NCBI GenBank assembly: GCA_965178125.1
Contig: OZ237751.1
Span: 868,001-932,000, forward strand
Length of the DNA: 64,000 nucleotides
From: Bilabrum cf. latius
Lineage: Eukaryota
Direction of reading: 5' to 3'
The translations under genes were made by a program, and so were the position numbers. The notes under the pieces were generated by a model. That model made no database searches. It saw nothing but the letters and a program-made list of their open reading frames with translations, and was not told where the DNA came from. Shown here piece by piece: positions 18,701-57,100 of the stretch (position 1 is the first letter of the stretch; each line of letters opens with the position of its first letter).

Positions 18701-21700
18701 CTCGTGCCCCTGCTCCTGCCCTCGACCATGCCCCCGCCCCACAGAAGCAGACCGATGGACTCCGTGATTAGCAACTGCACGCTCGTGCCCCTGCTCCTGC
18801 CCTCGCCCATTCCCCCGCCCCACAGAAGCAGACCGATGGACGCCGTGATTAGCAACTGCAAGCGCATGCCCCTGCTCCTGCCCTCGCCCATTCCCCCGCC
18901 CCACAGAAGCAGACCGATGGACTCCGTGATTAGCAACTGCACGCTCGTGCCCCTGCTCCTGCCCTCGCCCATTCCCCCGCCCCACAGAAGCAGACCGATG
19001 GACTCCGTGATTAGCAACTGCACGCTCGTGCCCCTGCTCCTGCCCTCGCCCATTCCCCCGCCCCACAGAAGCAGACCGATGGACTCCGTGATTAGCAACT
19101 GCACGCTCGTGCCCCTGCTCCTGCCCTCGCCCATTCCCCCGCCCCACAGAAGCAGACCGATGGACGCCGTGATTAGCAACTGCACGCTCATGCATGGCAA
19201 CAGGTGCAGCTTCCGTCACATGGGCTGCCTTGGGCTCATGCACGGCAACAGTTGCAGCTTCCGCCACATGGGCTGCCGCGGGCTCGTGCCTGGCAACAGG
19301 TGCAGCTTCCGTCACATGGGCTGCCGCGGGCTCATGCACGGCAACAGGTGCAGCTTCCGTCACATGGGCTGCCTTGGGCTCGTTCCTGGCAACAGGTGCA
19401 GCTTCCGCCACATGGGCTGCCGCGGGCTCGTGCCTGGCAACAGGTGCAGCTTCCGTCACATGGGCTGCCGCGGGCTCGTGCACGGCAACAGGTGCAGCTT
19501 CCGTCACATGGGCTGCCGCGGGCTCGTGCCTGGCAACAGGTGCAGCTTCCGTCACATGGGCTGCCGCGGGCTCGTGCCTGGCAACAGGTGCAGCTTCCGT
19601 CACGTGGGCTGCCACGGGCTCGTGCCTGGCAACAGGTGCAGCTTCCGTCACATGGGCTGCCGCGGGCTCGTGCCTGGCAACAGGTGCAGCTTCCGTCACA
19701 TGGGCTGCCGCGGGCTAGTGCCTGGCAACAGGTGCAGCTTCCGTCACATGGGCTGCCGCGGGCTCGTGCTTGGCAACAGGTGCAGCTTCCGTCACATGGG
19801 CTGCCGCGGGCTCGTGCCTGGCAACAGGTGCAGCTTCCGTCACATGGGCTGCCTTGGGCTCATGCACATGGGCTGCCGCGGGCTCGTGCCTGGCAACAGG
19901 TGCAGCTTCCGTCACATGGGCTGCCGCGGGCTCGTGCCTGGCAACAGGTGCAGCTTCCGTCACATGGGCTGCCGCGGGCTCGTGCCTGGCAACAGGTGCA
20001 GCTTCCGTCACATGGGCTGCCGCGGGCTCGTGCACGACAATTGGTGCAGCTTCCGTCACATGGGCTGCGGCGGGCTCGTGCCTGGCAACAGGTGCAGCTT
20101 CCGTCACATGGGCTGCCGCGGGCTCGTGCACGACAATTGGTGCAGCTTCCGTCACGTGGGCTGCCTTGGGCTCGTGCACGACAGGAGGTAGAATCCTCCC
20201 TTTACTACCGGAAGCGACTGCAATATTCAACTGTATCCCGTCGTGGTCGTCCCGCTACTCTGAGCCTGCAGCATCGCTGCGCTTGGAACGGCTGTCGCTG
20301 ACGTCCGAATCTAGGTCTAGGCTGACCTCAGGCACGTCTTGGAGTTCGATCTCATCCGACGAAACCAGGCCGTTGCAGGCCCCACCTTCTGGCTTTCTCT
20401 GGTTGTGTTCAGTCTCGCCTGCAGACGACATGCTGCTGTCAGTCTCGTGCTCCTCCGTTCTGGCGACAGTCTCATGCGCCCCCTCCTTCTCGCTAGCCAC
20501 CTCATCAGCGCGTGCAGGCGATTCGCACGGCGCATTGAACAGCGCGTCTTCGAAACTGTCGTTAGGGATCCTGCTCTTTGATCGCAGCTGCTTCGATGGA
20601 AATCCGGCGTCATTAGCGCCGCCAGTGCTTCCATTCCCACCTTCTCTCTACTTGTACTACTGTCCCTGCTCCTCATCCCCAGCGGGGAACTGAAAGTAGT
20701 CCTCCGAGGCGCCAGGGAGAATCGCCGGGTCATCATCGTCAATGGACGTGCGCGCCTCTTCGATGATGCTAGCAGAAGTGCCCCGAGTTTTGCGGCTCCT
20801 ATCGAGAGCCTCCTCGTCCGCGAACTGAAAAAACTCCTCCGAAGCACCGGGGAGTATATCCTCATCCTCATATTCGTCTGGATCAGCAGCATCCCCTGCT
20901 TCAACGAACTTGTGAAAGTCTTCATGTGCGCCGGGTAGCATCATGGGCTCCCCGTTCGGAGGGGCTGGCCTGGTGACGCCTGACACCCCCCCGCTACGGA
21001 CTCATATCTGTAATAAATGTTGTTACTATTTCACAAGGCTTCTTATCTTTTAATAAATCTTTTAAATGGTCTTTACACCTTGCTATGTAATAGGTTTGAC
21101 CTTCAAAATAGACGTTCCAGTTTATCCTTCTATAATAATCTTTCGGTTGTGTAGCTTTCAAGGTTCCATTTTCCCATTTTAATAATTCCATTCTGTATAT
21201 ACCTATAATAAATATATTTTTTAAGTCAATTTAAACGCTCTATAACAATTTAAAAATAAAAGCGCGTTTGTTCCATTTGTGAAGGTATAAGCGAGGATAA
21301 GGGGGTATAATGAAGGTAGTTTAGAAGGTTGAATAATGGAGTCCCATAAAGTGATGGAACTTTTGGCTAGAAAATGGCTAGAGTCCCATAACACCTTCAC
21401 AAGAGGGCTACATCCACGTTTTGCTAAATAATACATATACTAATACGCAATTTGTGGATATGGTCATCGTATAGAGTTTTATATATAATTGATTTTCTAT
21501 AATTAGAAGGATAAAGCAGTTATATGAAGTAGCAGTATGAAGAGGCTCACCTTGACTTTTGGAGCGACTAGCGAGAAAAGGAATGGAGAGAGGGAAGAGC
21601 TTTAGCTCTGACTGAACGTAATTATTGATGATGTTAATCATCCTTAACCGAAGGGAATAAATTTATTTATTACCGTAGCGGGGGGGTGACATGGCCGTGG

Positions 21701-35901: not shown

Positions 35902-36227
35902 ATGGTTGACGTGGAACCGTTGTACTGCGCGGAGCAGATTAAAGTTCCAGAACATCTACCTGATGTCATGAAGCAGTGGACGAAGGCAGTTATTAGGGCG
36001 AACCCGGATGATTTGGTTGCGTGGAGTGCAGAGTGAGAAGCATGTTTTGTCACATGTGCTCAATAGAAGTTGTGGTAATGCTATATCTGCATCGATGCGA
36101 TGTTATTATTCTTTTGCGTGTCTTCTCGAGCAGGTACTTTGCCAGGAGAGCCGAAGAGCGAGTAGCAGCGGCATCAGGTGGGGCTGCTGAAGGCAAGGAA
36201 GATGGAGACGCCAAGGAAGACGGTTAA
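35902..36227 (+). CDS. Small RIIa dimerisation/docking-domain protein (ropporin/RSP11-like), intron 36033-36133
   Basis: MVDVEPLYCAEQIKVPEHLPDVMKQWTKAVIRANPDDLVAWSAE|YFARR is a ropporin-type RIIa motif. The GTGAG..CAG intron joins GA+G in frame. Ends in TAA. Confidence 0.88.
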
Positions 36228-37343
36228 CTGCCATGAATCTCGGCAATAATAATCTTATAGTATAGCAATTTAACTGTGGCCGGCCCCTACAGGCTATTTG
36301 CATTCGGCATATCGGATTTTTCTGCTCGACTGTGCATCGCATCAGTGGAGCAGGCATCATTGATCAATATTGCCATGTACATTCCGATGGCGCTTTCTAA
36401 GCTTTGTACGCGTTGACATACTGTGTATTGCTTGCCAGATTCCATGCACCTCTGAAAGGGTCCAGTCACTAGTCTTGGGAAAGCCTAGATCTAGCAAGTG
36501 GAAGGCTCCAGCTACCTTCGCAACAGCCGCCTCCGACGCCTGGGTGTCCTTGCGATGGACATGCATCCTTATGCTACACAGAGCTCCGTAGTCCTGCTCG
36601 CCCCTGATGACCACTAGCGCGCTAATCCCCGCTAGACTTGGCTGAGGTCCGCCAGCTTGTCCTGCCCGTGCCCGCGATTCGCTGCGGGCAAGCCGGCCGA
36701 CCAATGCCAAGTCTACTAGAAGTATTCGATCATTAGAATGCCATTGCCACAGCGGTTTCCCGCATGGTCCGGAGCTGGACCTGCGATGGTATCCTCCACT
36801 GGCACTCCTTGGTGCTCCCCCAATCGCGTCGAAGCATGAACCCACATTGTGTGAGGAGTTGCCCCGCTGTTGCCGAAGCGGATCGCGCGGCCGAGGAGCT
36901 CGCAGAAGGCCCTGTGCCAGAGGGTGGTTGGCCTCTGGTGGCGCTGTTCCGATTAGAGCGCGTGGAAGTGCGTGTCCACGAATGCGAGCACGAGGCCCTA
37001 CCAGCGCAGCTCGAGGGTGCCTTCTCCCGCCATGGGGTCGTGAGGTCAGGCCTCGTCGAACATGACTTGCTTCGGGTACTATTGCTCGAAGCTGTCCAGG
37101 GTCGTGGTCGGGCCATTCACCTCATCGACCACCTCCCACCACGGTGGTGAATTCCTGCAGAATCTGCAGCATGCGGCCCTCGATCTCCTCCGCAATCGCC
37201 TGGTCCCTGGCTCGAGTCACGTTCATGGGCGACTCGGACAAGAAATCCACATGCGTGGTATGATGTTGCCTAGCACCTTGATGTACGGAGAAGAGTGGAC
37301 AAGTCTCCTACGGAACGTTCATAATTGCATGCAAGATCCGATT

Positions 37344-37664
37344 TGGGCTCACTCGGCCCAGACTCCTCCAACCAGACACGCTATATCAACCCAACATTCC
37401 CACTCAATCACATCTCCTCGCCAACACCCCCCCAGCGCCCGTCTCGCGCGCTTCCCTCTGCGGCCCTTCCCGTGGCCACCTCGTCGACGTCGCCCTACCC
37501 GACATCGTCCCACCTGTTGTCTGATGATTCCCCTTTTCGAGGCGCTAATGGTACATCCGGCGCCTGGGAGCAGTGATTGCTGGCAGGGGTCAGGCTCGAC
37601 CCTGCCCAGCACTTGTTCCCTCGGGCCCCCAACCTGATGGTCAGGTACCCTCAGGACTCCCCAC
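37344..37664 (+). repeat. 321-bp direct repeat, copy 1
   Basis: Identical to 39176-39496 by eye. Confidence 0.93.
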
Positions 37665-39003
37665 GCCGGGACTCGACCTAGAGTCGGCAATCCCCCAAAA
37701 GGAAAAAAAATCAAACTGAGCTAGCCCACCCCCACGATCGCTCCCATCGCCTACCTCCTCGGCTAGGGCCTGCGTCGTGACAGAGGCTGGCGCGGTCGTC
37801 ACCCAGCTACCATTGAGGGCCAATCGCCCCACCACCCCAGTACCAGGTATAGCTGCTTTACCGCTCTTCCGCCCCACCGTGGGGGCATCAGAGCAGTGGT
37901 TAGCCGCGCAGGAATCGTCCCGCTCATGCTATGGCATTGGCTCCCTGCCGCCGCCACAGCTCCAGACTCTCCTCTCTAGCTGTGCAGACCCACACTCTGA
38001 GGCTTCGCCGTCCGGGCGTCGCTCCCAGTCCCCGCGCAATACGCCACCCCATTGGACGGGGCTCGCCAGCGTACGCGAAGGGCACTGTGTGTTCTGGGCC
38101 CGGCCACCGCCGATCATTGGCCTCACCCCTCCCCACAGCGCAGGTACCAGGCATCCGGATGTACGTTCTGCCGTTTCGGCCCGTGCCATCGTTCAACGTA
38201 GGTCCTGCGAGTGTACGAGGACAGAGCGACCAGGTGTGTGCGTTCCGGTGTAAGACCAACGCGCCACCCTGGCTGACATTCATCAACCGCACTATTGCGG
38301 CCGCCCTGCCTTCCGATGGCTAGCATTGCGCTGCCACCGGCGGGTTCTCGCTGTTACTGCAGGCCCTCTGCAGCTCCAGCATTAGCTTCCGATCGTCGCG
38401 TCGCCTCCCTGGCTCGCACGTTCAAGTGCGTTGCGCGGATGTAAGATCTCTCCCATTCCGTGCGAGCCTCGCCTTTACTCAGCTTTTACACGAGAACCTG
38501 CTCCAAGGCTGGTATGGCGCAACTGCCAACGTAAGTATACTCTCCTACAGGTCAAGTCTGGGTCTGCCCAACCGTGGGTGACGTTCCAGTCCCGAGCTGC
38601 AAGACTCAGCGTTTGCTGTTATTGAGCAACGGAGGGGCACATAGCGGCTAGCTGGCGTGCGCCCTCTCGGAGTATACCTAGTTGTTAGTCGCACCACACG
38701 CCCCCCGGTGCAGGCCGCCGTGTCTGCAGTCGATGTGGCTCCTGCCATACTCCCTCCATCTGGGTTCCCGCAACTTTTCCTGCGGTTGCTGGTCCCAACC
38801 TCGGCTGCCATCGCAACCCCTCTTCTCGACTCTACTCTTCAGCTTCCTAACCACCCCTGTAGCTGCTGGTACATGGTCGCATGTTGCCCAGCTCACCGGT
38901 CCGACTTTGGGCCGCTCGCTCATCTTTTCCGATAAAGAGCCCTCTCCCGTCAGCCGATCCAAATCCGTTAGGGTATCGCGTTGTCTCCCTGGGAGAGCAC
39001 CAG

Positions 39004-39175
39004 AAAATAAAAATAAAAATAAAAATCGCGCTCGGCCTCGGGAAATCCTCCCGAAGTGACTGAGCGGTCACGCTGGTTGATACACGCCGCGCATGGTCGG
39101 TGTAGCGGATCCTCGCAGCCCACTCGTCACGGTCGCAGGTCTGATTAATCACCAGTAGACGCTACCGTAGTCCCA
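39004..39175 (-). mobile_element. ~170-bp element made of the joined 5' and 3' termini of the neighbouring retrotransposon, with an (ATTTTT)n tail
   Basis: 39102-39175 matches 51001-51074, and 39017-39105 matches 41867-41955. The halves overlap at GTAG/CTAC. The tail is longer here than at 41867. Confidence 0.8.
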
Positions 39176-39496
39176 TGGGCTCACTCGGCCCAGACTCCTC
39201 CAACCAGACACGCTATATCAACCCAACATTCCCACTCAATCACATCTCCTCGCCAACACCCCCCCAGCGCCCGTCTCGCGCGCTTCCCTCTGCGGCCCTT
39301 CCCGTGGCCACCTCGTCGACGTCGCCCTACCCGACATCGTCCCACCTGTTGTCTGATGATTCCCCTTTTCGAGGCGCTAATGGTACATCCGGCGCCTGGG
39401 AGCAGTGATTGCTGGCAGGGGTCAGGCTCGACCCTGCCCAGCACTTGTTCCCTCGGGCCCCCAACCTGATGGTCAGGTACCCTCAGGACTCCCCAC
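39176..39496 (+). repeat. 321-bp direct repeat, copy 2 (abuts the short retro-element)
   Basis: Identical to 37344-37664; offset 1832 bp. Confidence 0.93.
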
Positions 39497-40069
39497 TTGG
39501 CCCGAGGGACCCCTGGGTTCCCCAGCATGCTTGGAAGCTGGGGCCCCCACCCCACCACTTGGTCCTCGGGCCCTTGCCCGCACGGTGGTCTCGCTGCGGG
39601 ACACTGCCGTAGCCCTCTTCGGACAGCCCATGCTAGCTCAGCGGATGCGAACCAACGCGACTGCCCCTCTGTGCCTCCCTTGGCAATCTGCGGCAGGGTG
39701 TAGTCGTGTATACAAACCGGAAACGAGCCTCAGTGAGACCGACGTAGCCGCCTGCTCGGCTCTGAACGCTCCGGTCCAATATTGACCCCCAAGCTATCAA
39801 CCTTAACACCCTCCCACTCCACAACACGCCAAAGTGTTTCGCCCTATTGACCATGCACTCTAGCGCAACCCAGTCCACCAGGTGACGAAGCCGAGCTCAT
39901 CTCAATCAAGTCCGGTGTTACGCACAACAAGCAGTACAAGAGTATGGCGGGTCACGGGTAGGTGCTGTGTGAAAAGAAAGGTAAAAAAAGCGGGTGCGAG
40001 ACCGATAGCAGCAATAAAACAACAGCCACTACCAAACACCGGACTACACAAGAGCTAATGGCTACCATC

Positions 40070-41450
40070 ACCCGGCAGCCTTGAGGTGACAAGCAAGATG
40101 AGCACTGGTCAGCAAGGAAACAGGTGCTCACGCCACAACGCGCCATCCTACTTCACAGCAAGCACAGCCTACCCCACCCACAAACACATGCAGGCGAAAG
40201 ACTCATGACAAGCTCAAAGAGCACGCGCCTCCTCCGACGGCCGCGCTCTCCCTCGGCCACAGCCACCCGCTCCTCCTGCCCAGCTCCCCTTTCAAACATG
40301 GGGACAGCATACAAGCGACATCGCAGGGCCACCGCCACACCGGCAGCCTTGAGATGACAAGCAAGATGCGCACTGGTCAGCAAGGAAACAGGCGCTCACA
40401 CCACAACGCGCCATCCTACTCCACAGCAAGCACAGCCTACCCCACACACAAACACATGCAGGCGACAGACTCATGACAAGCTCAAAGAGCACGCGCCTCC
40501 TCCGACGGCCGCGCTCTCCCTCGGCCACAGCCACCCGCTCCTCCTGCCCAGCTCCCCTTTCAAACATGGGGACAGCATACAAGCGACATCGCAGGGCCAC
40601 CGCCACACCGGCAGCCTTGAGACGACAAGCAAGATGCGCACTGGTCAGCAAGGAAACAGGCGCTCACACCACAACGCGCCATCCTACTCCACAGCAAGCA
40701 CAGCCTATCCCACACACAAACACATGCAGGCGAAAGACTCATGACAAGCTCAAAGAGCACGCGCCTCCTCCGACGGCCGCTCTCTCCCTCGGCCACAGCC
40801 ACCCGCTCCTCCTGCCCAGCTCCCCTTTCAAACATGGGGACAGCATACAAGCGACATCGCAGGGCCACCGCCACACCGGCAGCCTTGAGATGACAAGCAA
40901 GATGCGCACTGGTCTGCAAGGAAACAGGCGCTCACACCACAACGCGCCATCCTACTCCAAAGCAAGCACAGCCTATCCCACACACAAACACATGCAGGCG
41001 ACAGACTCATGACAAGCTCAAAGAGCACGCGCCTCCTCCGACGGCCGCGCTCTCCCTCGGCCACAGCCACCCGCTCCTCCTGCCCAGCTCCCCTTTCAAA
41101 CATGGGGACAGCATACAAGCGACATCGCAGGGCCACCGCCACACCGGCAGCCTTGAGATGACAAGCAAGATGCGCACTGGTCTGCAAGGAAACAGGCGCT
41201 CGCACCACAACGCGCCATCCTACTCCAAAGCAAGCACAGCCTACCCCACACACAAACACATGCAGGCGAAAGACTCATGACAAGCTCAAAGAGCACGCGC
41301 CTCCTCCGACGGCCGCTCTCTCCCTCGGCCACAGCCACCCGCTCCTCCTGCCCAGCTCCCCTTTCAAACATGGGGACAGCATACAAGCGACATCGCAGGG
41401 CCACCGGCCCACCGGCAGCCTTGAGATGACAAGCAAGATGCGTACTGGTC
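40070..41450. repeat. 268-bp tandem satellite, ~5.2 copies
   Basis: ttgagatgacaagcaagatg recurs at ~40081, 40349, 40617, 40885, 41153 and 41421. The period is not a multiple of 3. Confidence 0.95.
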
Positions 41451-41866
41451 CGGTAGTAAAACGAGGTCGTCCGGCCTCGAGTTCTTTGTTTTCCCCCCAA
41501 AATACATATTACCTGCCATATTCCTGTCGCGAATATGCGTTCAACATGTTGCTGGGTTCCTTATCGCGCGAAAACGTTTATCGCGAGAGACGTCGCGGGC
41601 TGTAAGCGTGCAATATATTCAGCGGTTCACACCCCGGTCGTTCTTTCTTGGCCCTTGTGCGTCAATTCCCATTTAACTGGAGCAAGGCACTGGCGTGATA
41701 GGCACTATTTATGCTTATCCACGCGAAACTGCGTCTAAGGTACAACATGGCTCTCTGTTCGTAGGGCCAGATGCCCGCAATCGTGCGTTGCTACTGCGTC
41801 TCGCCGCCTGCCTCATAGTTACTTGCTTGCGTATAATATACTCCCATGCTGAGTGCGGTCTTTTTG

Positions 41867-44800
41867 AAATAAAAATCGCGCTCGGCCTCGGGAAATCCTC
41901 CCGAAGTGACTGAGCGGTCACGCTGGTTGATACACGCCGCGCATGGTCGGTGTAGAGAGAGAGAGAGAAAATAGAGTTTTCGCACGCAATTCAATACCAG
42001 AGACAATCCGAGGACTGCCACCAAAGTAACGCGCACCTTAACAGGGGACCCAGCTGTACCCGCGTTGGCGGAGCCAGTCAGGACCTGAAAAGGCCTCTGA
42101 AGAAATAGTTGGTCTGGTTAAGACCGATACATGCCTAGGACCCGTGTCCTAAGCGCACCGCGTTGAGATCTCCTGGGAGTCAGACCCAGTCGAACGTCCG
42201 CAGTGAGGGAGCATGCGCGAGGAAGGCCTGGCGAGGCGTGAGGCGTTCAGCCTCTCGCCACCAGACCGCCACATAGTCCGCCTCTAGGACTTGTTGCCTG
42301 CTCCAGATCCGGGAGCGTGCTAGCCTTGCCGTTCCCTTCGCCCAGATGCGTTCTAGCACCTGAAGCTCCTTGCTGAGGGCGCAACGGCCCAGCGTTCCTG
42401 TCATCCACTCTCCGATGAACTAGTTCTCGGAGGGATTCAGTATGTGTCCGAGCGGGTGGGCTCGGATTGCAAGGTCTCGGGCTGTTGGGCTGCCCGAGCT
42501 GAGTTGTTCAGCTACGCACAGTTGGCAGGACTACAACCCCTCGATGGCTCGTCCGAAGCTCTCATTGGCCCTCTGCTACAAGCGTCGGATTGCACGTCGG
42601 CACCGTTCTTGGAGTTGTTCGAGGGTGCCTTGGACGATAGAGAGCTCCAAGGAGTCTGCGTCCCCTCGGTGTTCCTGTGTCAGCACCTGCTCCGTTTTGA
42701 CGTGTTCCATCCATAGTGCTCTCCCCACTGCCGTGGGTGCCCAGGGTACGTCCGTGTGCGTGGCTTCCGCGCGCATCATTTCGGCCTGTACCGAGCGTTC
42801 TCCTCTGTGGTGCATGGTCCCTTCCCGAGGGTAACGCCCAGTGAGCCATCGTAGGATGAGGCGGCCGTCTCGGCCTCGCCAGGTGCTCCGTGCTATCGCC
42901 GGCATGGCCGAAGGGCCGAGGATCCGGGAATTGTCCAAACCGATGCAGCTCTGTAGGTATTTCATGCCTACAGAGTCCTCGTCAAACTTTGCCCAGGCGT
43001 CTGTCGCTACCGGGTGCATCGTTTCTGCTTCGCGCAGTATACCGGCAGCGTGCGTGCTGGAGCTCGACTTCAGCAGTGCAGTCGCGTCCCGTAGGATATA
43101 CGGGCACAGCCACGAGGTGAACGTTCGTTTCAGCTGCTTGCGGTTCTTGGTGTTGAAGATCATCTGGAAGACGGACTGGTCTCGTGCGCCATGTTGGCAC
43201 CTGTAGACTGCGGCCATGTTCGCCATAGGTCCCTGGGCACTAGGTTCGTGCTTGACCATGTACCACGCGGTTAGCTGCATGTGGGCAGGCGTGTCTCCGC
43301 TCAGCAGCACCAGTGAGCAGCCGTACGCCTGTGAGACAGCTCTGGCCATCGCGTCGGCCGGCCAGACCAGCGCCCTGACCGTGTCCTTCGGCAGGAAACG
43401 GCCACCTCCTTTCTTAGGAAGTCGGGGGGCTGCTTCGACCAGGGCGGCCCTGGCACAGTCTAGGACCTCGTCGACAATGTTCAAAGCTGCCTTGTTCCAG
43501 ACTATACCTGGTACGTAGGTGCATTTCACTGTCTTGCGTTTTAGCTCCTGCTCGAAGCCTGCTGGTGCCGCTGAGAGGTGGAGGTCTTGCAGCACCGTCC
43601 CGTAGACTGCACTGTACAGGATCGAGGACAGCTGTGCAAGGCTCCAGTCAGAGTTCACGGCTGCTTGGCAGATGTCCGCAATGCTTCGTCTTGCCTTGCC
43701 GGCTTGCCTCTCCAAGTGTTTCACTGGGTCCAGGACGTGGAGCTGTCTAGTACTTCCGTCGGCCATTTTGACCGGTGCCCGTCTGGTGTGTAGACGGAAG
43801 CCGAGGTAGTCGTACTTGTGGACCAGTCGGATTGGCTCCAGTGGTGCCGTGGCTAGAGTGCCAGGAAGTTGCTCTTGGATCCTGAGATTGAGCTCCTCTG
43901 GGGTGAATGCAACTGCACGTCCGCTTTCCACGTCGTCGTCAGTTGCTTCGAACGCCTCACGGGTCAGTCCGGTCGCCATCACAGCTGTCTTGCTCGTGTA
44001 GCCATTGCTGACTGCTCTTACGCCCAACTCATGGCCAGACTCATGGTGTCCAATGGAGAGCACTGCTACAGCCGTCAGCGAGCCGCTCTTGCACAACATA
44101 GTGACGCAGGTGTCGTCCGCGTACAGCGTCTGTGGCTCCTTCTGTGCGATGTCCCAATCGGCTGTCAGTGGTGCCGCTTGCGGTCCTGCGCACACCTGCC
44201 TGACGTACTCGTTCGCAGGTACCATTGATACCGCGAAGCCATCTGGGGAGATGGGATCTCCCTGGCATGTCCCCTTTCCTCGCTCGAATGGTTCCGATCG
44301 GGTGTTGCTTGGGCGGTGGTACACCTCCGCTTTAGCTTTCATCCTATTGACGAATGCACTCGAAGCGGTCGCGCTCAGTCCAGCCTTCTCTAGCGTGTAC
44401 CGCATGATAGGCCATTGGACTCGGTCGAATGCTGCTTTCAAGTCTCCGAACAGGAGCACGAGGCCCTGCTTCCCCGCGGTGAAGGTCTGCTGCAGGATCT
44501 TCAGGATTGCGATCACTCGGTCACGGCGCAGCGTGAAGCCGAACTGCGAGGCTCCTTTCGTTTGGCGTTGAGCCATGACTTCCTGGCAGTTGCCCAGCAG
44601 GATGATGCCCAATACCTTTGCAATCACGTCTGCGTACTAGATGCATCTGTAGTCACTGCATCGGAAGTCACGGTCGTCCGGCTTGCCTTTGAAGGCTGGT
44701 GCAATGAAAGTGCGCAAGAGGGTCAGCGGGTACTATCCGCACACCATTGCGCAATTGTGGATAGCTTGAAGGGCCTTGAGGAGTGTCAGAGGGTACTTGC

Positions 44801-47800
44801 GTTCTCCGTCGGCGAAATCGAATGTGAGTCTGATTGCGCGTGTTGGCACCCCGCTCGGCCCCGTAGCCTTTCCGGACTTCAACTACTTGATTGCAGTCGA
44901 GATGTGTTCCTCGGCAGCGTCATCAGTCACCAGCATGCCGATTTTCGGGGATGTTGGCATGTGTTGGCCCAGGACCTCGATGAATCTTGAGAGACCCTCA
45001 TCAGTGGACGTGTCCACTGTGTTGGCCGTTGCGTTGGTAGCGCTACTGGAGTAGTATGCCGCGTGGGCGTCCACTGCCTCCTAGGCATTGGAGGTCCGTG
45101 TCCCGTCTTCGCGGTCCACCATTGCAATAGCTCGTTGCTTTGATCTTCTGGCCCCGAGTTGGCTCGATATCGTGCGGTACGCCTCGCGGGCAGGTAGGAC
45201 CTTCAGAGCTTGTTGGAGTGCGTGGGCATCGCAGCGGATACGATCTCTGGTGAGACGTGTCACTGATATCGTGTCACTTCCTGCAGCTGCAACTACTCGT
45301 TGAAGCACCATCTTGTTCGCGAGGTTGCTCGGTTGTAGGTCTGCGGGGGCCAGGGAGGACAGTGCAGTCGGGAGCAGATGCTTGCCCCAATCGCAATTGG
45401 TCGCTACCCTAGCCTGTACCCGTCGTCGCAGTTTGCTGATCCTTTTGATCATGGCATTGGCCTCTGGGCACTTGCCAGACCCAATCTCCCGTATTGACGT
45501 CTCGCGCCTGTCTGCGTGCTTGCTTTTGATCTTACGCAGCAGGGAGGCAGCTGTGTCCCGGATGCAGACAGTCTCGGTCAGAAGGGATGCGTCCTTGTGT
45601 CGCTGGAGTCTTGCTCTTTGGGCCCTTTTTACCATGCGAGAGATCTTCGCACGGTGCTGGAGGCGGCTGCGTGGGGCTGCTTGTTGGCGCTGGGCTGGTC
45701 CAACCGCGGCCTCGCAGGCTTTGGAGTCACAGTCTGCCAGCGTGGAGACCAGATGTTCCAGTACTGTCGTGGCTTGGCCAAGGATGCTGGCCTTTTCATC
45801 TCCTCCCGCTCCCGAGTCTTCACCTAGTGTCAGGGCTGCTGTGCTCGCCTGCTTGCTCAGCTCCATCAGCTATGGCTATTCGGCCAGCAACTGTGCCATC
45901 TTCCTGCGGTATCGGCGGACCTGGGCTTTGGTACGTGGTCTCCGTAGCTTGTCTGGCGCCGTGTCTAGGGTAGCACTTGGATCGTTGTAGACTTGTGACC
46001 TGGTAGTCTCTACCCTCATGGCTACGGGTGAGTGATCCTAAGATCCGGGATTTCGAAGGACTGCACCTCCTGTCCAGAGCGCTGACCCAGCGAGGCCCAC
46101 GTCTAGGCAATTACCTCCGCCATGTGTTGGCATCCACGGGGTCCGAAGGCTCAGACACGGTTCACCGTCCTCCCTGGTGGGGGCGTCCTCCATGATGTCC
46201 GCTTCTCGGTGCGTGTTCAGGTCGCCAATCAAGACGGTCTGATCCAGGTCAAACTCGAACCTTTGCCCATTGCTTGTAGTCCAACCTGTTTGCATGCACC
46301 TAAGTAGGCGCTTATAGTCCCCGCGATGCTCGCCGTCGAGGGGGTTGTAGCATCCAACTGCGTGAACTGTGCGGCTCCCTGCGACTGTCACATTGACGAT
46401 GAGGCAGTCCCGGATGTCCTGGGGCATATCTGCTGGCTGAATGGGGCAGAACTTGGTCATTAGTCGTGAGTTTGTGTTCCAGACCGCCGCAACCCCATGA
46501 GTGCCTCCTTCCGTGGGTGTTAGCCACACGCCTCTGTACGTCAGGTTTGGCACTGCAAGTGGCAGTAGCTTCTGGTCCATGGACGAGTCAGAGCTTCGGC
46601 CGTACTCCGTCATGAACAGCAAGTCAGGGGCTTGCGTTAGTTGGAGTGCACGCTCGATGGTACTCAGTTTCCTCGACTTGTTGACATTCAGGTGGCCGCA
46701 GCGGAATTCTTGGGGGCGATGTGCCGCTTCCCAGGTAGTGGTCCAGTGCTTGGCAAGAGTCATTTCGTTCTCAGGAGTCATCTACTTGTGTGAGATGGCA
46801 CGGACTGTCTAGGCTGGGTCATCTCGGGCTTCTATCTCATGTCGCCGGTACTCTCGGTGTTCCCTGATGCGTCGTGATGGTGTAATGGTCCGTCTTGTCC
46901 CCGCGTATCCGACTGTGGACCGGTTCAGGTAGTCGCGGTTGCCGATCGCCGCTGTCTCCGGCCGACCTCGGCGGTCAGAGGAGAAAGCTGGCACCTCCAG
47001 TGTGCCGTTCTTACATTGTCTGTATAGTTCTCTGTCGTGCTAGTCCACGAGCTCGGACTCGCTGCCCTCACAAAGGCTCTTGAACAGGCTCTCCGAGGGG
47101 AACATGTCGTATGCCACTCTTGGTAGTTCCCGTCCGGCAATCTTGTCGAATGATCCTGCGTTGATCGACTTGGCCAGGGCTGCACGCTGCGCCTTCGAAG
47201 GGCTGCCCCAGAATCCTACTGCTGCGATGAACTTGTGTCCAAGACGTGGGCCTGGAGCTTTGTCGAACTTCGCCGGTGCGTAGGAGCCCAGGGTTAGACG
47301 TCGGAGTGTATTCGCAGAGATGTCCTCCCTGGTACCGTTTGCTACGCCGTCGACGTACAGGTATGGAGTCCTCTGTTCGCTGGCCATGGCCGTCGGCGAG
47401 GCCTTCATCGTGATGATCGAAGCGGCGTGGTCGATGCTGAGCAGGAGGACTCGAGAGGGAAGCTTCAGGTCAGGACCGTCGATGGCCCTTCTCATGCTGT
47501 GTAGGAGGCTGGATACGCCCATGTCTGGGCTGGCCACCATTGGTCTGCACCACGTGTGGTCGTATCCATCCGCCGAGGCAAGGCGGGCCACTGCTGTCAG
47601 CATCCTCCCAATGGTGGTGCACCTATTTGCCGAAACGATGCAGTTGTCCGAGTCCTACAGGCGGCATGCCTACTGCATTGAGAGGGGGACAGCGCTGACG
47701 ACCTGAAGGGCAAGCGTATGACACTGTTTAGCTGGGAGCCTGTACGATCCGACGACATGGTCTCCGGAGCTCTACCAATTCAGGAGGGCCTCTCCAGACG

Positions 47801-50800
47801 GGATGGGGCCCCCGTTGAGCTCGGCCATCGTCTCCACTGCAGACTTCATGTCCTCATCGGATGGGTGCTGGCTCGCCAGGGTGTCTTCCGCCTGTTGCAG
47901 CCTTTTCTGCCACGTTGTAGTTGGTGCCCAAAGTTCTGCACTTGACGCTGGGACAGGCGGTGCGTCGTCGCGTGTCAGGGCCACTGGTTCGTGCGGGAGG
48001 TCGAGCTCAAGTCCGTGTCTTGCGTAATCCAGAGCAGTTGAGTCTTGGGCAATGCACGCGGCCGAGGGTTTGCTCAGCAATATCCGGGGCATCGTTCGAG
48101 CGTTGACCAGCGCCTGAGGTCCTCTACGTGGCTAAACTGATGTTGTCTGCATTCCCATGAGGAAGTAGTGACCTCCAGTGGTATCAGTCCCATCGAGAGT
48201 CTGGGCACGCATGGCTACTGCTGTCGTCATCCTGGCGGGCGTGTGTAACCGCTGGGTGACTAATGGTCGGGCGAGGTATAGTGTTGCCTTGGCGGTACCC
48301 ACTGTCAACATAGGGATGTGTACTCCGTGGACTGCCGCTACGTGTCCCAACACACACTCAGCTGGTGGCCAGTAGTGCGAACTGCGCCACCATGGGATGC
48401 ACAGGGGTGCTACCTCCGATCCAGTCGTCGTCGTCCCGGCCATGAAAGACAGGCTGGCGTTGAAGTGTGCCTTCATCCACTGGAGTGTGTTGCCCGGGAG
48501 TGAGGCAGTAACTTCACTGCTGAAGAGGAACTTGCCTGGGACGTAGTCCGGCTCAATCTTCGTGATCCTGACGAAGTTACCAATGGCACTCTCCATGATT
48601 GCTAGAGTAAGCACCACAAGATCGCGTTCCAGATGCTGTAACGATGAGTTCTCTTCGCGGTCTTCCGCTGGGCCGAGGCTTTGTAGGATCTCTTTGGTCT
48701 TGTCTTCGTCCAGCTCTCGAGTCGAAACAGCGTCCGCGAGTTGCTTAATCTTGTCTTGTGGGTAGCCCTGCCGGGCCGCGTACAAGGACAGACATTGGGG
48801 TGCATACGGGTGTGCCCTCATGATGCCTCGCAACAGTGGGAGAGTGTCGTGATGCTCTGCCGTGGTGGGAGTGCGTACCTCGCCTCCATCACCGGTCTCC
48901 TACTCAGCGGCGTCTCCAGCCCCTGCTACCGCGTGTTCTGCCGCTGCTCCTCCTGTGGCTGCGTTTGATGCGGTGGTTGTGGTCCGTTCATGGGCGATGT
49001 GTGCTTTGCATGATTGGACGATTGAACTGACGAAGGCAGGGACGTGACTTGACTGGACCCCCACAAGTGTGTGGATGGAGTCCAGCCAACATAGGCCGTT
49101 GGTGCACGTCTTGGTCCTCCGGGATGACAATTTACTCGTCGGGATGTCAGTGGTGAGGGCCTGGATGCTGGAGGGGTTGGTGGCGAATGCATCGGGATCC
49201 TTGTTGCAGTTCGCCATCATGTCTGTCACCGTGTAGAGTTGAGGAGTGGTTCTTACGATCGGTCTTGCTTGGTCCCTGGTTGCCTGCGTCCCACCTTGCT
49301 GTGCTTGCCGCCGTGAAGGTCGTTGAGTCTTGGGCTGAGGGGGCTGGGCTGTCTTCTGGTTGCTGCGTGCTTGGCGCTGGCTCTGGGAGCGCCGCTGTTT
49401 ACCTCCCTTGGTCGACTTGGTGCAGTGTGCCCGAAATAGTGCATGTGTCCTAGGTGGAAGGTAGCCTGCCTTAACAGCCTGGCAGAATTCCGAGTCGGTC
49501 AGCTTCTCCGAGTTCCAAGTCCCGACCAAGTTGTGGTCGTTGCGGTGTCGCATGCCCTTCTCCTTCACTGCGGCTTTCAGCGTGGCGGGTAGTTTCTCAA
49601 TCAGCGGGGTCTTAGGTGGCAGCATTCCGTATGCTGCTGCCTTGAGGATCGCCTTGGTGTCTGGGTACTTCTCCGACTTCCAAGCTGCTAGCGGGTTTGA
49701 GCAGTGGCGAAATCCTTGCTTCTCAAGATTCATCCTCGTCTACGCATTTGGTGTCCGCTTCTCCAGTTGCAATAGAGATTTCCTCAGTTGTGAGGTCTAC
49801 TGAGGGGTGTTGCTTCGGCCTTTGTTCGTCGCCCTTGGTGAGGCAGTCCTGCCGGGCCCGCGTGAACTTGCCTGTTGCAGACTAGATGGTGCTGCTGAGG
49901 TCTTGGGCTTTGGCTTCTGCTGTTCTTTGCGTCGTTTCGCTGCTTGGCCGCGTTTACTGGCTGTTAGCCAACCATCAGCTGGAGACGAGGGCGACTCGTC
50001 GCCGCTTTCAACCGGTTCTACGATTTGAACGCCAGATTGGAGCTGGCGTCCGAACTGATGGTATCCCATTGGGGGCAGCCCGATGAACACACTACCTCCG
50101 TGGCTGGTATTGCCATGGTTGGTGTTCCCAGAGAGTTCGGGGTTCGCCTGCTGGTTCTGAGGAGGTGGGGTTGTCGCGGGCATCACCGCTGCTGTCGGTG
50201 CTGCCTGTGCCACCAGTGCTGGTGCAGGTGGTGCTGGTGCAGGTGGTGCAGGTGGTGCAGGTGGTGCAGGTGGTGCAGCTGGTGCTGCTGGTACTGCCGG
50301 TGCTGCTAGTACTGCTGGTGCTGCTGGTGCTGGTGAAGCCTCCGGGGAAGCTGATGCGGTTGGCCGCGTGCCAGGCGGGTTATCGGTGGTCTGTTCGGCG
50401 CGCTCTACCGCAGCAGTGCCCGTCGAGTTCACGGGCTGAGCATCTGCATTGGTAGTCTAGTGGTCTAGTGGCTGGGCCGGTGCCGTCATCTTGTGCGTGG
50501 CCACCCTTCGGCGCTTGTTCATCTTGGACTCATAGTACGTGAGCGCCAGATCTGCGATCCAGATCCAGAAGAAAACGAAGCCCGCGACCAGGGCTGTGCC
50601 GGTAAGCCCGTACATTAGAACTCTTCCCATAAATCCTAGATCGCCCGAGATGATCGTCCAGGTCTGGTGATCGCCATGGATGTGCATCGGCGAATTCAAG
50701 TTGTGTCTGGTCCAGTCCTCCCGGTAGTGCGAAGGTTCAGCGTTGCGATGGTCGCGCCAGCGCCTTTCACGAAAGGTGGTTTCTTCTTCTTGCATCGTAT

Positions 50801-51074
50801 TGGGGGTATCCGGTGCTGGGGCTCGGTTCCAAGTGGGTTCCGTGTGCACCGGGTTTGAACAGTGGGATTGCTGGGAGAGTGGCTACATCTCTTGCTCTAG
50901 GGTGCTTGACGCTCCCAGTACCGACAAAGCCCCGACTATCAGCGCTATTGATGCCCCTTTTGGGCATTTCAGCAAAACAGCCCCCATAGGAGCCTAAAGG
51001 GTAGCGGATCCTCGCAGCCCACTCGTCACGGTCGCAGGTCTGATTAATCACCAGTAGACGCTACCGTAGTCCCA
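41867..51074 (-). mobile_element. Full-length APE-type non-LTR retrotransposon (~9.2 kb)
   Basis: Contains an APE+RT ORF. Both termini are duplicated in the 39004-39175 element. (TC)n and (ATTTTT) tracts lie at the 3' end. No clear flanking TSD was seen. Confidence 0.9.
42180..50987 (-). CDS. Single ~2935-aa retrotransposon polyprotein: signal-like N-terminus/TM helix, Pro-Ala linker, putative cysteine protease, AP endonuclease, reverse transcriptase, C-terminal CxxC
   Basis: ATG 50987 to TGA 42180 in one frame with ~22 TAGs and no TAA/TGA. APE motifs: GHLNVN, LLFMTE, VLIGDLNTH, NCLD, DHSPV. RT motifs: AIK.LKSGKATGPSG, QFGF, DLKAAFDRV, GTCQGDPISP, LYADD, YLG. Confidence 0.9.
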
Positions 51075-51129
51075 CGTTTGCTGCAATATCAGAGGCTTAC
51101 CGACACAACCGAGACACGCTAGTATTTAA

Positions 51130-54100
51130 ATGTAGTACTTGCTTCGATTTCCAATCATACAGAGGAGTCTCCCGCCATTGTAGAGCATTTTGCCGTACTT
51201 GCTATCCACGGATGGACACGACGACATCCACAAGTTCACACTGAAAGAAGAGGGCATGCTCACTCAATTGGCAGATTTAATGACTGGCTATGATAAACTT
51301 TTGCGAACGCCAATCACTCAAGACACAGTGGACTTCTTGTGTCAAAAGCTTCTACGATCGGCATGTCCGAGGCACCTTGTTCTCGACATGATTCGCACTG
51401 TGGGACTTGTACCACGTGCAGCGGTGCATCTGTAGAAGTATATATCTGTGCTCCTTGTACAGGCTGTGCGTTTGTTGCAGACAGGAGAGTGCAGTGTGGG
51501 AATCCGGCGTGTTGGCTTTGAGCTGGCCGGGTCCATTCTGGCTGGTTGCCTGGACAAGCTACTGCTTTTTGAAGGCAGTGCAGAAGTGGAACATGCACCG
51601 GCTGCCCTTCAATCTGAGCTCACGCCTTACAAATTCGCCGAACTGACCGTTCAAGCGTCCGGCAGCGGAACCGCGACATCAGCAGCAGGGTCCGCTGAAT
51701 CTAGATCCGAGATCGGATTCCGTCCATCCGCTGCGAGCAGCTCGAGTGGCGCTGCTACCGGAGGGGCTGCCCCACCATAGGCCTCTCCGGTGTCTGCATT
51801 GTCCTCCGGCCCTCCTGAGGCCGCCCATCATAGCACCTTGCCTGTTCGCGTCATTGAAGCCGCGGGCTCTGTGCTGGCAGCGGCAGGCCCATCCGATGCC
51901 ACGCCCGACCGCTAGCTGCAGCAGGCAGCCGCGATGCTGCTGGCCACCGTGGCCTGGTGCGTGGGGGAGGTGGTGCAGGCTTCTGATGGCGAGGAGGTGG
52001 GCAAAGGAGCAAAGGTGGGCAAAGGAGCAAAGGTTGTAGGAGGGGGTGCATCGGTTGCACTGGTGCGCGCTGTATCATCGGGGCTGCAGGCCATGCGGGA
52101 AGCGCCTGCAACGGACCACCGTGCTGTGAATATCGTGCGGATGTTGATGAAGGCGCTAGGCACGGTGTGCTACTGGTCTCCCGATGCCAGGGAATATGCA
52201 AACCACGATGAACGCATATCATCACTGCTATATAAGGACGATGAGGACGACCCGCAAGTCCTCAGCGACCCTGGCGATGTTGCACCTGCGGCAAGCAGCA
52301 CTGAGGTGATGCATTCACGTTTGGTTGCACCCGTTGCGGTGTTTGTTCGGGGCGTGCTGGCAGGGATTTGGATAGGAGAAACCTCGGCGAAAGGTGCAGG
52401 TTCTGACGCTGACGCTGACACTGACGCTGTCCCTGTAGCATATTCTGATGCTGCAGAGCCGCAGCTGCCCGCAGACTTAGGGCAGCATGCATCAGCGCAT
52501 TCCACAGCAGATGCAGTCTAGGCACATTCGCGCTCATCCTAGGCCGCAGGGCAGTAGACCGCCGTGGACTGTGCGGGTCTGAACATGAGGAACAGCATCA
52601 CTGGCTATCAGGAGGCAGCCGGGAGCCAAGACCTGGCCGGGTATGAGGGCGTTGGCGGCCTAACGGACAGCCCCCCACCAGCTGCATCAGGCGCAGGCAG
52701 TTCCGATCATTCAAGCGCAAAGTAGTCAGGCATGCATCAGGAAGAGGGGTGCAAGGACCACCAGCGCGCCTTCGAGCTCGCTAGGCTTACCATCGCAAAG
52801 AGCATCGCCGAGGAGCGCGAGCGGCTGCGAGCGATCGAGGCCGTGTGTGACGAGTTCCGACACGATGCTGTTGAAGCAGCGCAGCAGATGCCAGCTCTCC
52901 TTGGGTTGGTTAGGACGCCTACCCCCTTCTGTGGTGCTGACTGCGAGACTGGTACGACTGCGAGCGAATCTTCAGGTATTGCGCCTGGTGCAAGGGACTC
53001 ATCGAAAGCAGCAGACTTAGTCGTCCCGGACTCGTCCGGTGCTACTATCCTGATTGATGCCGGCGGCATAGCAGGCGGCGCCAAGGCCATCCACGCCAAG
53101 CACGGCCTCTTCCTCAAGACACCCGAGTCTGACAGCATCTACGGCAGCGATGTCATGGCGGCAAAGGTCATGAAGTTGGAGATGAAGGCAGCCAGGTGGG
53201 TGCACGAAATGGACTCGATCCACGCCAATGGCGTTCTGACCACCGTGGTGGATGTACCGTACGAGCGCAAGGATGGGAGAGGCAGGGGCGTGCAGCGTGT
53301 GCAGGTGCAGGCCCGTGTGCCGGTGAGCGACGCCACCCTCCGGTACGGGTCATCGGACGGTGGTGTGACGATACACGTGGACAAGGAGCAGGAAGCAGAC
53401 GTAGTAGATAAATTGGCGGATCACTGCAAACTAGCACCACTGGGGCAGGCGGGGTGCAAGCGGGTGGTCGTGCACACTTACGATCGTGTTGGAATGGGTT
53501 CCACTGGCGAGCCCTACAGCTGGCTGGATGACATGAAGCAGATGGGCCACGACATGAGCGAGCTAGAGGAACTGTGCACTCCACCATCGCATGATCACCG
53601 GGAACCATCTTCGAAAGAGGAGATCGCTTTTGGGCTCGGCATTGACTTTAGTCCTGCATGTACCGCGTTTGGCAACCCACACTCTTGTCGAACTATTGAA
53701 CCTGCTACTGCGAAAGAGCATGGGTGGGACGTTGCTGATGGGCTCCTGATTCACAAGCTTCCATTCGACGTGGAGATTCACCAACTGGAGAGCGGCAGCA
53801 GGATCGTGCTCGACACACACCGGCTTCTGCCTCCCGACCTGGCGTGGATTCTTTGGGCTAGGTAGAGCGAAGAATCTAGACCTCGTGTCTGGGCAGTGTA
53901 GACGGAACCGCCAGTGTACTGCAGTGGGCAACTCGATACTCATTTTCCATGGCCTGCAAACTCAAAGAGCTGGCCAGAATCTCTCGCGTAGTCACAAGAC
54001 GAATCTCTTAGCGCATCATTCTGTGGGGCGGTCCATGGCTGGGCCCGAGCCCAAGATCGTCTCGGGCCTGCTTCAAAATGCACACTTCACTCCCTACACC

Positions 54101-57100
54101 GCGGGGCTGGTATCGTGCTGCTGACCTCGGACTGTCCCACCAAGGGTAAGGTGGTGTACGTGGTGTCGTGCCCGCAGTGGTATTGGGGCGATGTGCCGTC
54201 GCTGACGTGCATGATGCCGCCGGAAGCAGCCGGGTATGGTTGTACGGCAACGGACGACGATGCCGAACCAATAAGTAGTGTTAGTCCTGATTGCACGTTG
54301 AGCGCTGGCGCTGACCCAACCCAGAAACATAAGAGAAATCTCGCTGCATGGACGGGTGCTGTCACGTCACCGGACAGGCTAGCACGAGTCTGGGAATCCC
54401 TTCGGAGCTGCATACCAGACATTGGAGTGAAAGCAGAGGATCAAGATGACGACGAAACAGCAGCCGATTCGCATGAGTACGGCGCCACTGGGTTCAGGTG
54501 GTCGTCGCTGCACAATATTCGAAGATCCGCCAAGCGCGTGCTAAGACAGGGTGGTCTTCGATTAAGACACATTGGCATGGTGGCACGGACGCCCAAGGCA
54601 TCAGATAACCCGCATACGCTTCTACATGCACTGGTTGCTTGCGGTAAGACTTGGGATCAGGCCCGACTGATTCCGAGTCGTTCGGGTCCTGGTTTGTGCT
54701 CCCGAGGCACTTCCCTTGAGGCAAGTGCTCGAGTGGAGGCTGAGACGCAACACGCAGCGCCACAGATATAAAGATCTGGGCACTGGAGTTCTGTTGAAAG
54801 GTGGTGCCCACGAATTCTCTGGAATTTACCGACTGTTGGCCACCGACGGGTCCGAAATGCCAACACTCACGCTGCAACTCAACGCCATGCGTACTCGCCT
54901 GCTTAGCGTATCACTCTTAGTGCGAATGTTGGTTTGAACTATTAACGAACTATTGGAGGGCGTACAAAGTGCGGCCGGTAGCGAGTTCCCGGGGTATCTG
55001 AAGTTAACCGCAAAATTTTGACCCGGCTCGTGCCGCATCCGTGACGGCCTGGGAGCCGCAGCCGCAGCCAAGCTTACCTTTTGTGGATGCAAGGAAGCAC
55101 TAGCGGAACCGGAATGCGCGTATAAGTCATGCGAGACCGCGGACCAGGCACAGCAACGCCGGCGAGATCATTTTCTCGTCAGCATGGCTCCCACTCTAGT
55201 TCTCTTCACAGAAATGAGCTCGAAACCACGGCCACAGGCGGTAGCAGCCATGGTCGACTCTTTCCCTAAGCTAGGGCGGTCCGCCGAAGGCGACGAGTCG
55301 CCACTGATGGTGCGGGTGTTCCGGTGGACCATGCTCGACGGCACGCCAACAGGTGCGCAGCTAGCGTGCGACCTCCTCCAGATGACGGCGATGCGGCACC
55401 TCATCAGCCTGCAGAACGCGGCAATAACTGGGGCAGTGGATACGGCGGCAGCCACCGGGTGGCCGAGGCGAACGGCACCCACGGAGTAGGCGCCCGGCGG
55501 GCCTGACGTGTCGAGCACGGACGCCGTAGAGCTGGAGGACATCAAACCGTAGTGCTGGAGGAGGCCCAGCTCGTGAAGTATCTGGTGGCTGCCAGCCTCG
55601 AGCTCTCCGCATCGTGGAACTTCTCAATCGCGCAGGAGAAGGCGGAGGCAGCGGCGCCCGGTGCAGGAAGTGGCGCAAGGAGAGTGCTCCGACGTCGCCG
55701 CGCCACTACTCCGGTAGCGGCAGCAGTGGGGTACCCTCGGGCGCTGAGGTTGTAGCTGGATCAAGCAGGAGAGCGTGACCTACACCCGTGCGCCAGATTC
55801 CGCTGCTGAACGTGCCAAGGCGACGCTGGCTGCCAGACGTGGGGCCAGCCGCATCGCCGCGACACAAGTACTTGGCCGGGGCGGGGCCTCAGGTAGTGCT
55901 TCTTCGTCATCGTCTTCCAGCTCCGTTCCTAGAAGGGATATAGCCGACAGTAGGGGGAAAGATGGGCCTGGACTCACACTCCTACCGTCGAGCGGGTCCC
56001 ACGCTGGGGTGGCTGTGCGGCACTTACGGGCCCCGCCCAGCTCTGCTTTGCGTACAACCGATCAACTCTCGGGAGACCTATTGGCTGCCTCTCCTTCAGC
56101 CCCGGATGTGCGTCTGCCCTCTTATAGGGCAGATCTGCCGGGGCCTCGGGGGTTGACGCCGTAGGCTCTATTCAACGAGGGCTCGCCGGTGGGAAACAGG
56201 CAGAGGTATCTGATGGGGATGACGACGAGGGGGCAGCAGACTCTGCGGCTGGTGAGAGCCGAGCACATCGTGGTGTAGACTCTGCGGCTGGTGAGTGCAG
56301 CGCCATCTTGGGTTTACTTGGGATGGCGTGGTCTTGATGGCACCAGCGTGCGCCTGCTGCGGACCGCCGTGCTGTGGATGTCAGCCTGGCGAGCCCTTGG
56401 CGGGTCGCTTTGCGTCATCTAGTAGATCGACTTGGGCTTGATTGGTCTTCAGAACGCCAGTGTGCGCCTGCCATAGACTGTCTTGCTGTGGAGGGCAGCT
56501 TGGCGAGCCGGTGGGAAGGGCACCCACGGAGTGCAGGTGCTCGGCGGGCCTGACGTGTCGGGCTCAAGGCGCAGTCAAGCTGCAGGACGTGCAGACCGTG
56601 GTGATGGAGGAGGCCATACTCGCAAATGATGTAGTGGCCGCCGTCCTCGAGCTTTCCGCAGCGGGGAAATCCTCCATAGCGCAAAAACGAAAGCGGCGGC
56701 AGCAGCGCCCGGTTCAGGAGGGACGCCGACGTGGGCGGGGAGAGTGCTCCGACGTCGCCGGCGCCACTACTCCGGTAGCGGCAGCAGTGGGGTACCCTCG
56801 GGCGCTGAGGTTGTAGCTGGATCAAGCAGGAGAGCATGACCTACACCCGTGAGCCAGATTCCGCTGCTGAACGTGCCAAGGCGACGCTGGCTGCCGGAGG
56901 TGGGGCCAGCCGTATCGCCGCGACACAAGTACTTGGCCGGGGCGGGGCCTCAGGTAGTGCTTCTTCGTCATCGTCTTCCAGCTCCGTTCCTAGAAGGGAT
57001 ATAGCCGACAGTAGGGGGAAAGATGGGCTTGGACCCACACTCCTACCGTCGAGCGGGTCCCACGCTGGGGTGGCTGTGCGGCCCTTACGAGCCCCGCCCA

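Follow-up and report, generated by a model that had tools for sequence, protein, structure and literature searches.

The 64,000-nucleotide stretch of DNA analysed here (the window; G000:C17:868001-932000 of a 48.6-Mb assembly of 111 contigs) very probably contains a young and intact non-LTR retrotransposon with an apurinic-like endonuclease (APE) and a reverse transcriptase (RT), which belongs to a deep-branching clade and encodes one polyprotein of 2,935 residues. Because the host appears to decode UAG as Gln and to stop only at UAA and UGA, the element would be translated as a single polyprotein.

On the minus strand, a frame extends from an ATG at 50987 to a TGA at 42180 and spans 2935 codons, 22 of which are TAG, with internal TAA and TGA absent (Table 1). 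The first-pass annotation had described an intact frame of about 2935 codons with about 22 TAGs, and both numbers proved exact. It had also taken the apparent fragments, or ORF1 plus ORF2, to be one frame, and this was borne out by the absence of TAA, TGA and frameshifts over the 2935 codons. The plus strand across 42180-50987 is closed, and in 200 shuffled sequences of the same base content the longest frame with TAG read as Gln had a mean of 266 and a maximum of 507 codons. The AAG TAG ATG noticed near 46782 is present, with the TAG as codon 1402 (46784-46782), and the segment ahead of the endonuclease, put at about 1400 residues, has about 1,430, the first APE motif (GHLNVN) being located at aa 1431. 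A TAG-ATG ahead of the endonuclease is not conserved as a meaningful border, since the distance from the last TAG to the APE motif is 29, 6, 248 and 218 codons in the four families compared.

Table 1. Features of the retrotransposon and its insertion site (window coordinates).
Feature	Positions	Strand	Basis
Whole non-LTR retrotransposon, 9,045 bp	41956..51000	-	Empty paralogous site on G000:C14; common 3' end of copies
5' copy of 4-bp target-site duplication, CTAC on minus strand	51001..51004	-	Repeats and empty site
3' copy of target-site duplication; CT overlaps the tail	41952..41955	-	Repeats and empty site
5' leader, 13 nt ahead of ATG	50988..51000	-	Frame open to 5' edge; slight 5' clipping possible
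Single ORF, 2935 codons, 22 TAG read as Gln, TGA end	42180..50987	-	Frame analysis
Signal-peptide-like leader, aa 1-28	50904..50987	-	Hydropathy heuristic
Membrane helix (predicted), about aa 120-152; a basic patch comes after it	50532..50630	-	19-mer mean hydropathy 2.0
Pro/Ala-rich linker of 9-nt repeats (repeat family D2)	50188..50353	-	Repeat analysis
Possible protease region of papain/OTU-like type; Cys633 with His871 or His940	48093..49157	-	Weak; motif kept in sister families
AAG TAG ATG, codons 1401-1403; a normal Gln codon and no conserved boundary between ORF1 and ORF2	46779..46787	-	Family comparison
Apurinic-like endonuclease, aa 1426-1660; HLN, TE, YNP, GDLN, LD and DH present	46008..46712	-	Motif alignment, Pfam
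Reverse transcriptase, aa 1991-2480; DLKAAFD, QGDPISP and YADD intact	43548..45017	-	Pfam, profile, motifs
C-terminal region common to the clade	42183..43547	-	Searches negative for RNase H, zf-RVT and restriction-like nuclease
3' UTR, 224 nt, ends in TTTT(CT)n	41956..42179	-	Copy comparison, empty site
Host repeat of 159 bp interrupted by the element, 3' half	41867..41955	-	5' half at 51001-51074; intact copy at 39017-39175

The limits of the element at 51000 and 41956, together with the CTAC duplication, were defined by contig C14, because it has the same segment without the element. LTRs are absent, and 5' truncation, a repeat tail and a target duplication are all present. A split-direct-repeat (Ngaro-like) or RIME-like reading of the 74- and 89-bp repeats was rejected, since other LINE copies lack them and on C14 they form one host repeat that is split here by the insertion. 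Window positions 37344-41955 and G000:C14:1065720-1074705 have in common a non-coding segment, in which 159-bp repeats are combined with a satellite of 268 bp; the satellite has 5 units in the window and 21 units on C14. The segment recurs incompletely on contigs C5 and C36, and it is possibly a larger mobile unit.

The RT was matched by Pfam RVT_1 over aa 2104-2297 (E 7.7e-9), and the RT profile matches the RT structures of L1 ORF2p and R2 with E about 1e-20. Pfam Exo_endo_phos matches the cut-out endonuclease domain at E 0.0008, which is short of the curated cut-off; the endonuclease motifs can be aligned across four families. No domain was found by Pfam in aa 1-1400. A separate ORF1 with an RRM, zinc knuckle or esterase is absent, there being one frame and no CCHC motif. 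Pfam revealed no RNase H in two families, and a C-terminal restriction-like endonuclease (RLE) was seen neither by pattern (PD-D/E or CCHC) nor by Pfam. A 2A/NPGP motif was not found in the element, and a search of window positions 36000-53000 against Rfam gave 0 matches.

Random nonsense mutations at the TAG sites should be missing from other copies of the element. TAG is kept at 17 of 18 shared sites in the C22 copy, 8 of 9 in C12, 3 of 3 in each of C18 and C36, and 15 of 16 and 3 of 3 in pieces on C27; all three exceptions are changes from TAG to CAG. Thus, the copies have TAG or CAG at these sites. The proposal that the element is written in a UAG=Gln code of its host is upheld by TAG at invariant Gln columns of both MCM and RT. 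Among the 12 TAG columns printed for eight MCM paralogues, the two invariant ones have Gln in 7/7 of the other sequences and the rest are variable, and in the C10 family TAG occupies two RT columns that are Gln in 5/5 of the other sequences. Between sister subfamilies that are 78% identical, the residue opposite 24 TAG sites is Gln in 12, TAG in 3 and another in 9, and never Tyr or Leu. A noisy alignment of six sequences has a Gln majority in 5 of the 17 TAG columns scored. Long frames with TAG (n = 32) end in TGA (27) or TAA (5). The host MCM and eRF1 genes and the genes of the window have open frames only if TAG is a sense codon; the remaining long frames of the window likewise need TAG alone, and most gain nothing from freeing TAA. 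This is the pattern of a code in which UAG is read as Gln and UAA and UGA are kept as stops. PRP8 has 4 TAGs (unaligned), two of which are presumably opposite non-Gln residues in the human protein, and hence it was not counted in support of TAG=Gln.

A nuclear tRNA with a CUA anticodon is encoded at G000:C23:907607-907679 (minus strand; locus L149), the only one among 29 pattern matches, with 63 of 780 tRNA candidates scored. It is identical to tRNA-Tyr at 50/75 positions, to Gln-UUG at 49/77 and to Gln-CUG at 44/75, and is not clearly derived from a Gln tRNA. Its acceptor stem begins with C1:G72, as in tRNA-Tyr here, whereas both Gln tRNAs have G1:C72. Loci L076 and L107 are nuclear tRNA-Ile genes with a GAT anticodon, which to our knowledge is unusual in eukaryotes. 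The eRF1 gene (L212:1379-2941; G000:C35) has two in-frame TAGs and two apparent introns. A TAG of this gene is opposite Gln in PDB 8ip8, with Leu at the site in 4/5 of the alignments shown, and the residue just before NIKS is Val, compared with Ser in all five PDB alignments shown. The CUA tRNA and the altered eRF1 would let ribosomes read through all 22 UAGs of the element. A UAG-only genome with such a tRNA and eRF1 makes the question of how UAG and UAA are uncoupled testable.

Of the 158 Gln codons of the element, 22 are TAG (13.9%); in the window, seven host frames together have 94 TAG among 567 Gln codons (16.6%). A search of the genome for RT gave 46 matches from several LINE families, most of which also include TAGs. 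The code usage of the element, taken in the first-pass annotation as co-evolution with the code change, is ordinary: its TAG share is at host level and other LINE families are the same. On these counts, the TAG codons of the element are best taken as neutral synonyms used at host frequency and no regulatory device; an active element that uses the code of its host is expected biology. The further warning that standard pipelines would mis-annotate such elements is confirmed by public proteins of the clade, which are fragments cut mostly at Gln. Of 11 aligned fragments, 8 (6 of 9 distinct sites) end just before a Gln/TAG, and one further fragment is unaligned; those cut in this way include two that are only 43-46% identical to the families described here. 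The clade is therefore invisible in databases, being represented there only by stop-bounded fragments. All visible members seem to live in stop-to-Gln hosts, which fits confinement to such hosts and is no proof of a barrier. A code-based block on transfer to standard-code hosts is a logical consequence only; the genome makes it testable whether the code change isolates the mobile elements of the lineage.

The copy number and identity, checks proposed in the first-pass annotation, were determined with the 3' 751 bp of the element as query, 40 of 46 candidates being scored, so that the count is a lower bound. There are at least 44 matches in the genome, 38 of which reach the 3' end, and 30 of these 38, the studied copy included, are at least 99% identical. 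The longest other copies are 5'-truncated and begin at positions corresponding to 49108 (C22), 45948 (C12), 44553 (C18) and 43666 (C36). In the C22 copy, the frame is open for 2,345 codons at 99.7% identity. Target duplications of 4-6 bp flank the C22, C12 and C18 copies, and a loose script called a duplication of at least 4 nt in 12 of 20 short copies, two of these rows being one insertion. A (CT)n tail, target duplications of a few base pairs and many nearly identical copies with truncated 5' ends are together the signature of target-primed reverse transcription. The prediction that the element is probably active is supported, as regards recent activity, by the many copies with at least 99% identity and by their target duplications.

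The 5' 1.9 kb (window 49110-51000) is present in the studied copy alone among the copies in the genome. Seven of the 26 copies compared differ from the studied copy at one 3' UTR site only, and its allele at that site is private, being absent in all 24 copies that cover the site. Given this private change, the studied copy is a very young member of an active lineage rather than its demonstrated source. All parts of the protein are under purifying selection, with pN/pS of 0.14-0.36 in comparison with the C27 copy and dN/dS of 0.08-0.41 between sister subfamilies. For the main C27 copy, identity is about 99% over the 5' part and about 95% over the RT, which suggests that it is a mosaic; G000:C27:127668-138710 is a nest of inverted and broken LINE pieces. 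Part of the stretch was found in 9 of the 10 sequencing runs listed, with no RNA run among the listed holders.

An RT profile built from five families was compared with 1.84 billion representative sequences, and the best 150 matches were taken. Seven of these, at 45% identity or more, are metagenome fragments without names; the rest are at most 33% identical, and the named ones among those looked up are animal LINEs. The RT phylogeny, another check that had been proposed, placed the element in a clade of its own: in a tree of 153 RTs, from which two short fragments had been left out, the five families group with five fragments at support 1.0 on a stem of 0.94 (next node 0.515, the references carrying no clade labels). 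The clade thus appears to be long-branched and deep-branching and may lie outside the named ones, with the reservation that Repbase and subscription papers could hold it. A word-index search for homologues of aa 1400-2935 gave no match among 8000 candidates of 1614-5137 aa, and a scan of metagenome contigs revealed at least 49 relatives among the 574 stretches listed, all at 35% identity or less and none of the clade.

The sister copies on C10, C1 and C34 are single giant frames that are 5'-clipped. The sister LINE at locus L215 (G000:C22:766187-774640, minus strand) is apparently full-length and, read from a Met some 35 nt inside the target duplication that flanks it, encodes 2,736 aa; its family has about 15 RT copies in the genome. 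The L215 protein has a hydrophobic leader, a Cys-rich segment and several membrane-like helices. The RT of the studied element is about 22% identical to that of the sister family (from the C10 copy). The N-terminal parts of the families gave no reliable mutual alignment (E 0.002 versus C34).

By hydropathy only, the first Met of the element has the most hydrophobic leader, ranking 1st of 75 Met, and is followed downstream by membrane-like helices; in L215 the first Met likewise ranks 1st of 82. The leader is accordingly termed signal-peptide-like, on hydropathy in two elements only. The ORF start is seen in the studied copy alone, with no sibling for comparison. The membrane region of the sister family has a dN/dS of 0.41. 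In three sister sequences (22-76% identity), Cys23 and His282 are invariant, about 260 residues apart and in contexts that we take to be OTU-like, and the Cys633 motif of the element resembles the sister Cys motif. A profile of the three sequences detects neither the studied element nor C34. The fold predicted from them (pLDDT 40) places the Cys at a helix start and the His on a strand, and a structure search with this model gave no match at E 0.001 or Z 8; a single-sequence fold of aa 560-1400 reached pLDDT 35. The sister protease region had no match among PDB sequences and, elsewhere, one near-identical fragment only. A Cys-His protease in the N-terminal part is possible, weak as the case is.

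We propose that the 1,430-residue N-terminal part stands in for a separate ORF1. The leader would direct the nascent chain to the ER and the helix would stop transfer, with the enzymes remaining cytosolic. The signal-peptide-like leader and the membrane helix give a slightly better than even chance that the polyprotein is anchored in the ER with its enzymes facing the cytosol. Release of the APE-RT part by the Cys-His protease is a tentative addition, and packaging of the element into vesicles is scarcely to be expected. Similarly speculative is the combined picture of an undescribed LINE clade of stop-to-Gln hosts with an ER-inserted polyprotein cut by a papain-like protease, in a new, probably stramenopile, UAG-only=Gln lineage with an atypical CUA tRNA. 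If true, an ER-anchored, protease-released polyprotein would amount to gene expression in a virus-like manner by a non-LTR element. No report of a LINE polyprotein with a signal peptide or a membrane anchor was found in the partly accessible literature, with Repbase and subscription papers outside its scope; a genuine leader with genuine membrane helices would provide an ORF1-replacing route for non-LTR elements of which the searches found no description.

The element might instead be a cryptic two-ORF LINE, in which the UAG at codon 1402 (or 1393) is a leaky stop and re-initiation at the next ATG yields much ORF1-like and little APE-RT product. Most APE LINEs are bicistronic, the TAG stands immediately ahead of an ATG and 29 codons before the APE motif, and in C34, the closest family, a TAG is likewise found 6 codons ahead of the motif. 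However, the C34 TAG has no following ATG, the C10 and C1 families have no TAG within 218-248 codons of the motif, and a TAG would fall within 40 codons of an arbitrary point with a probability of 0.26. In addition, 11 earlier TAGs would first need read-through; we consider such an arrangement improbable. Capture of host sequence, or a chimeric origin, is also unlikely, if slightly less so, for the 5' 600 codons that include the leader and membrane helix. Window positions 49110-51000 are found in no other copy and have no homologue found, and the N-termini of the two full-length elements cannot be aligned; but the target duplication encloses the entire 9,045 bp, the frame is unbroken, and a sister family with only ~22% RT identity has the same layout inside its own duplication, with its membrane region constrained as given above.

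That the element is dead, with TAGs as nonsense mutations in a standard-code host, would accord with CAG to TAG being a common nonsense change. This reading is refuted by the lack of TAA, TGA and frameshifts in 2,935 codons and by TAGs common to the copies; host MCM, eRF1 and window genes also need TAG as sense and a CUA tRNA is present, so that its probability is practically nil. UAG could be sense and yet ambiguous or non-Gln (e.g. Tyr or a mixture), to which the Tyr-like C1:G72 pair of the CUA tRNA would point, both Gln tRNAs having G1:C72. Nevertheless, Tyr is opposite 0/24 TAG sites and Gln occupies the invariant MCM and RT columns, which makes this very improbable. The preferred reading is that of an intact single-ORF element with UAG as Gln.

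Like the APE-type non-LTR elements L1, RTE, I and CR1, the element has APE followed by RT, 5'-truncated copies, short duplications and a simple-repeat tail; it differs in having a single 2,935-aa ORF, in which 1,430 aa precede APE, and in lacking zf-RVT and RNase H, and the nearest outsiders are at most 33% identical. APE and RT are shared with Dualen/RandI of Chlamydomonas, whose ORF is reportedly single and very long, with a cysteine protease at the N-terminus. Dualen combines APE, RLE and RNase H (PMC4640811); in the element neither RLE (Pfam and pattern) nor RNase H (Pfam) was detected. With respect to Ingi/L1Tc/Vingi, the element lacks 2A/NPGP, RNase H and an Rfam ribozyme match and has a far longer N-terminus with a hydrophobic leader. 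Those elements are said to resemble it in having a single ORF and a very short 5' UTR. Like it, they make a polyprotein that would have to be processed, in L1Tc by means of a 2A peptide (PMC4981915). A precedent for a protease is provided by NeSL/Utopia, in which a Ulp1-like cysteine protease precedes the non-LTR RT (PMC4640811), but these are RLE-type with fixed targets and the element is APE-type and dispersed.

The mitochondrial contig G000:C111 (L114-L117; 38,401 bp) uses TGA as Trp and encodes a UCA tRNA, cox1 and nad7. Also found on it were 10 tRNAs, an 808-aa basic ORF that is ribosomal-protein-like and a 535-aa ORF without assigned function. Given this aerobic mitochondrial contig, the host is not a fornicate. 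Its nad7 scores 624 bits against plant chains and 428 bits against 7tgh, presumably a ciliate structure, and is thus non-ciliate-like. Twelve near-full dynein matches in the genome indicate a flagellate. Since bicosoecid mitochondria have the same code and a similar size (PMC6723347), the host is probably a Cafeteria-like stramenopile. The code found here, UAG=Gln with UAA/UGA stops, is the same as that of Iotanema spirale, Hartmannula sinica and Trochilia petrani (PMC5304391, PMC11687900); the CUA tRNA gene was located here and was predicted or not found there for the Gln cases. The literature as far as accessible, including PMC13524379 and PMC5718144, yielded no description of a stramenopile or an aerobic flagellate with a UAG-only=Gln code.

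Elsewhere in the window, a 1,746-codon frame at 15704-20944 (minus strand) consists mostly of three kinds of tandem peptide repeats. Adjoining the insertion, a 1,213-codon frame at 51130-54771 (plus strand) has a CLU-like match (E 6e-9), and 159 bp close to the end of this frame are found again in locus L203.
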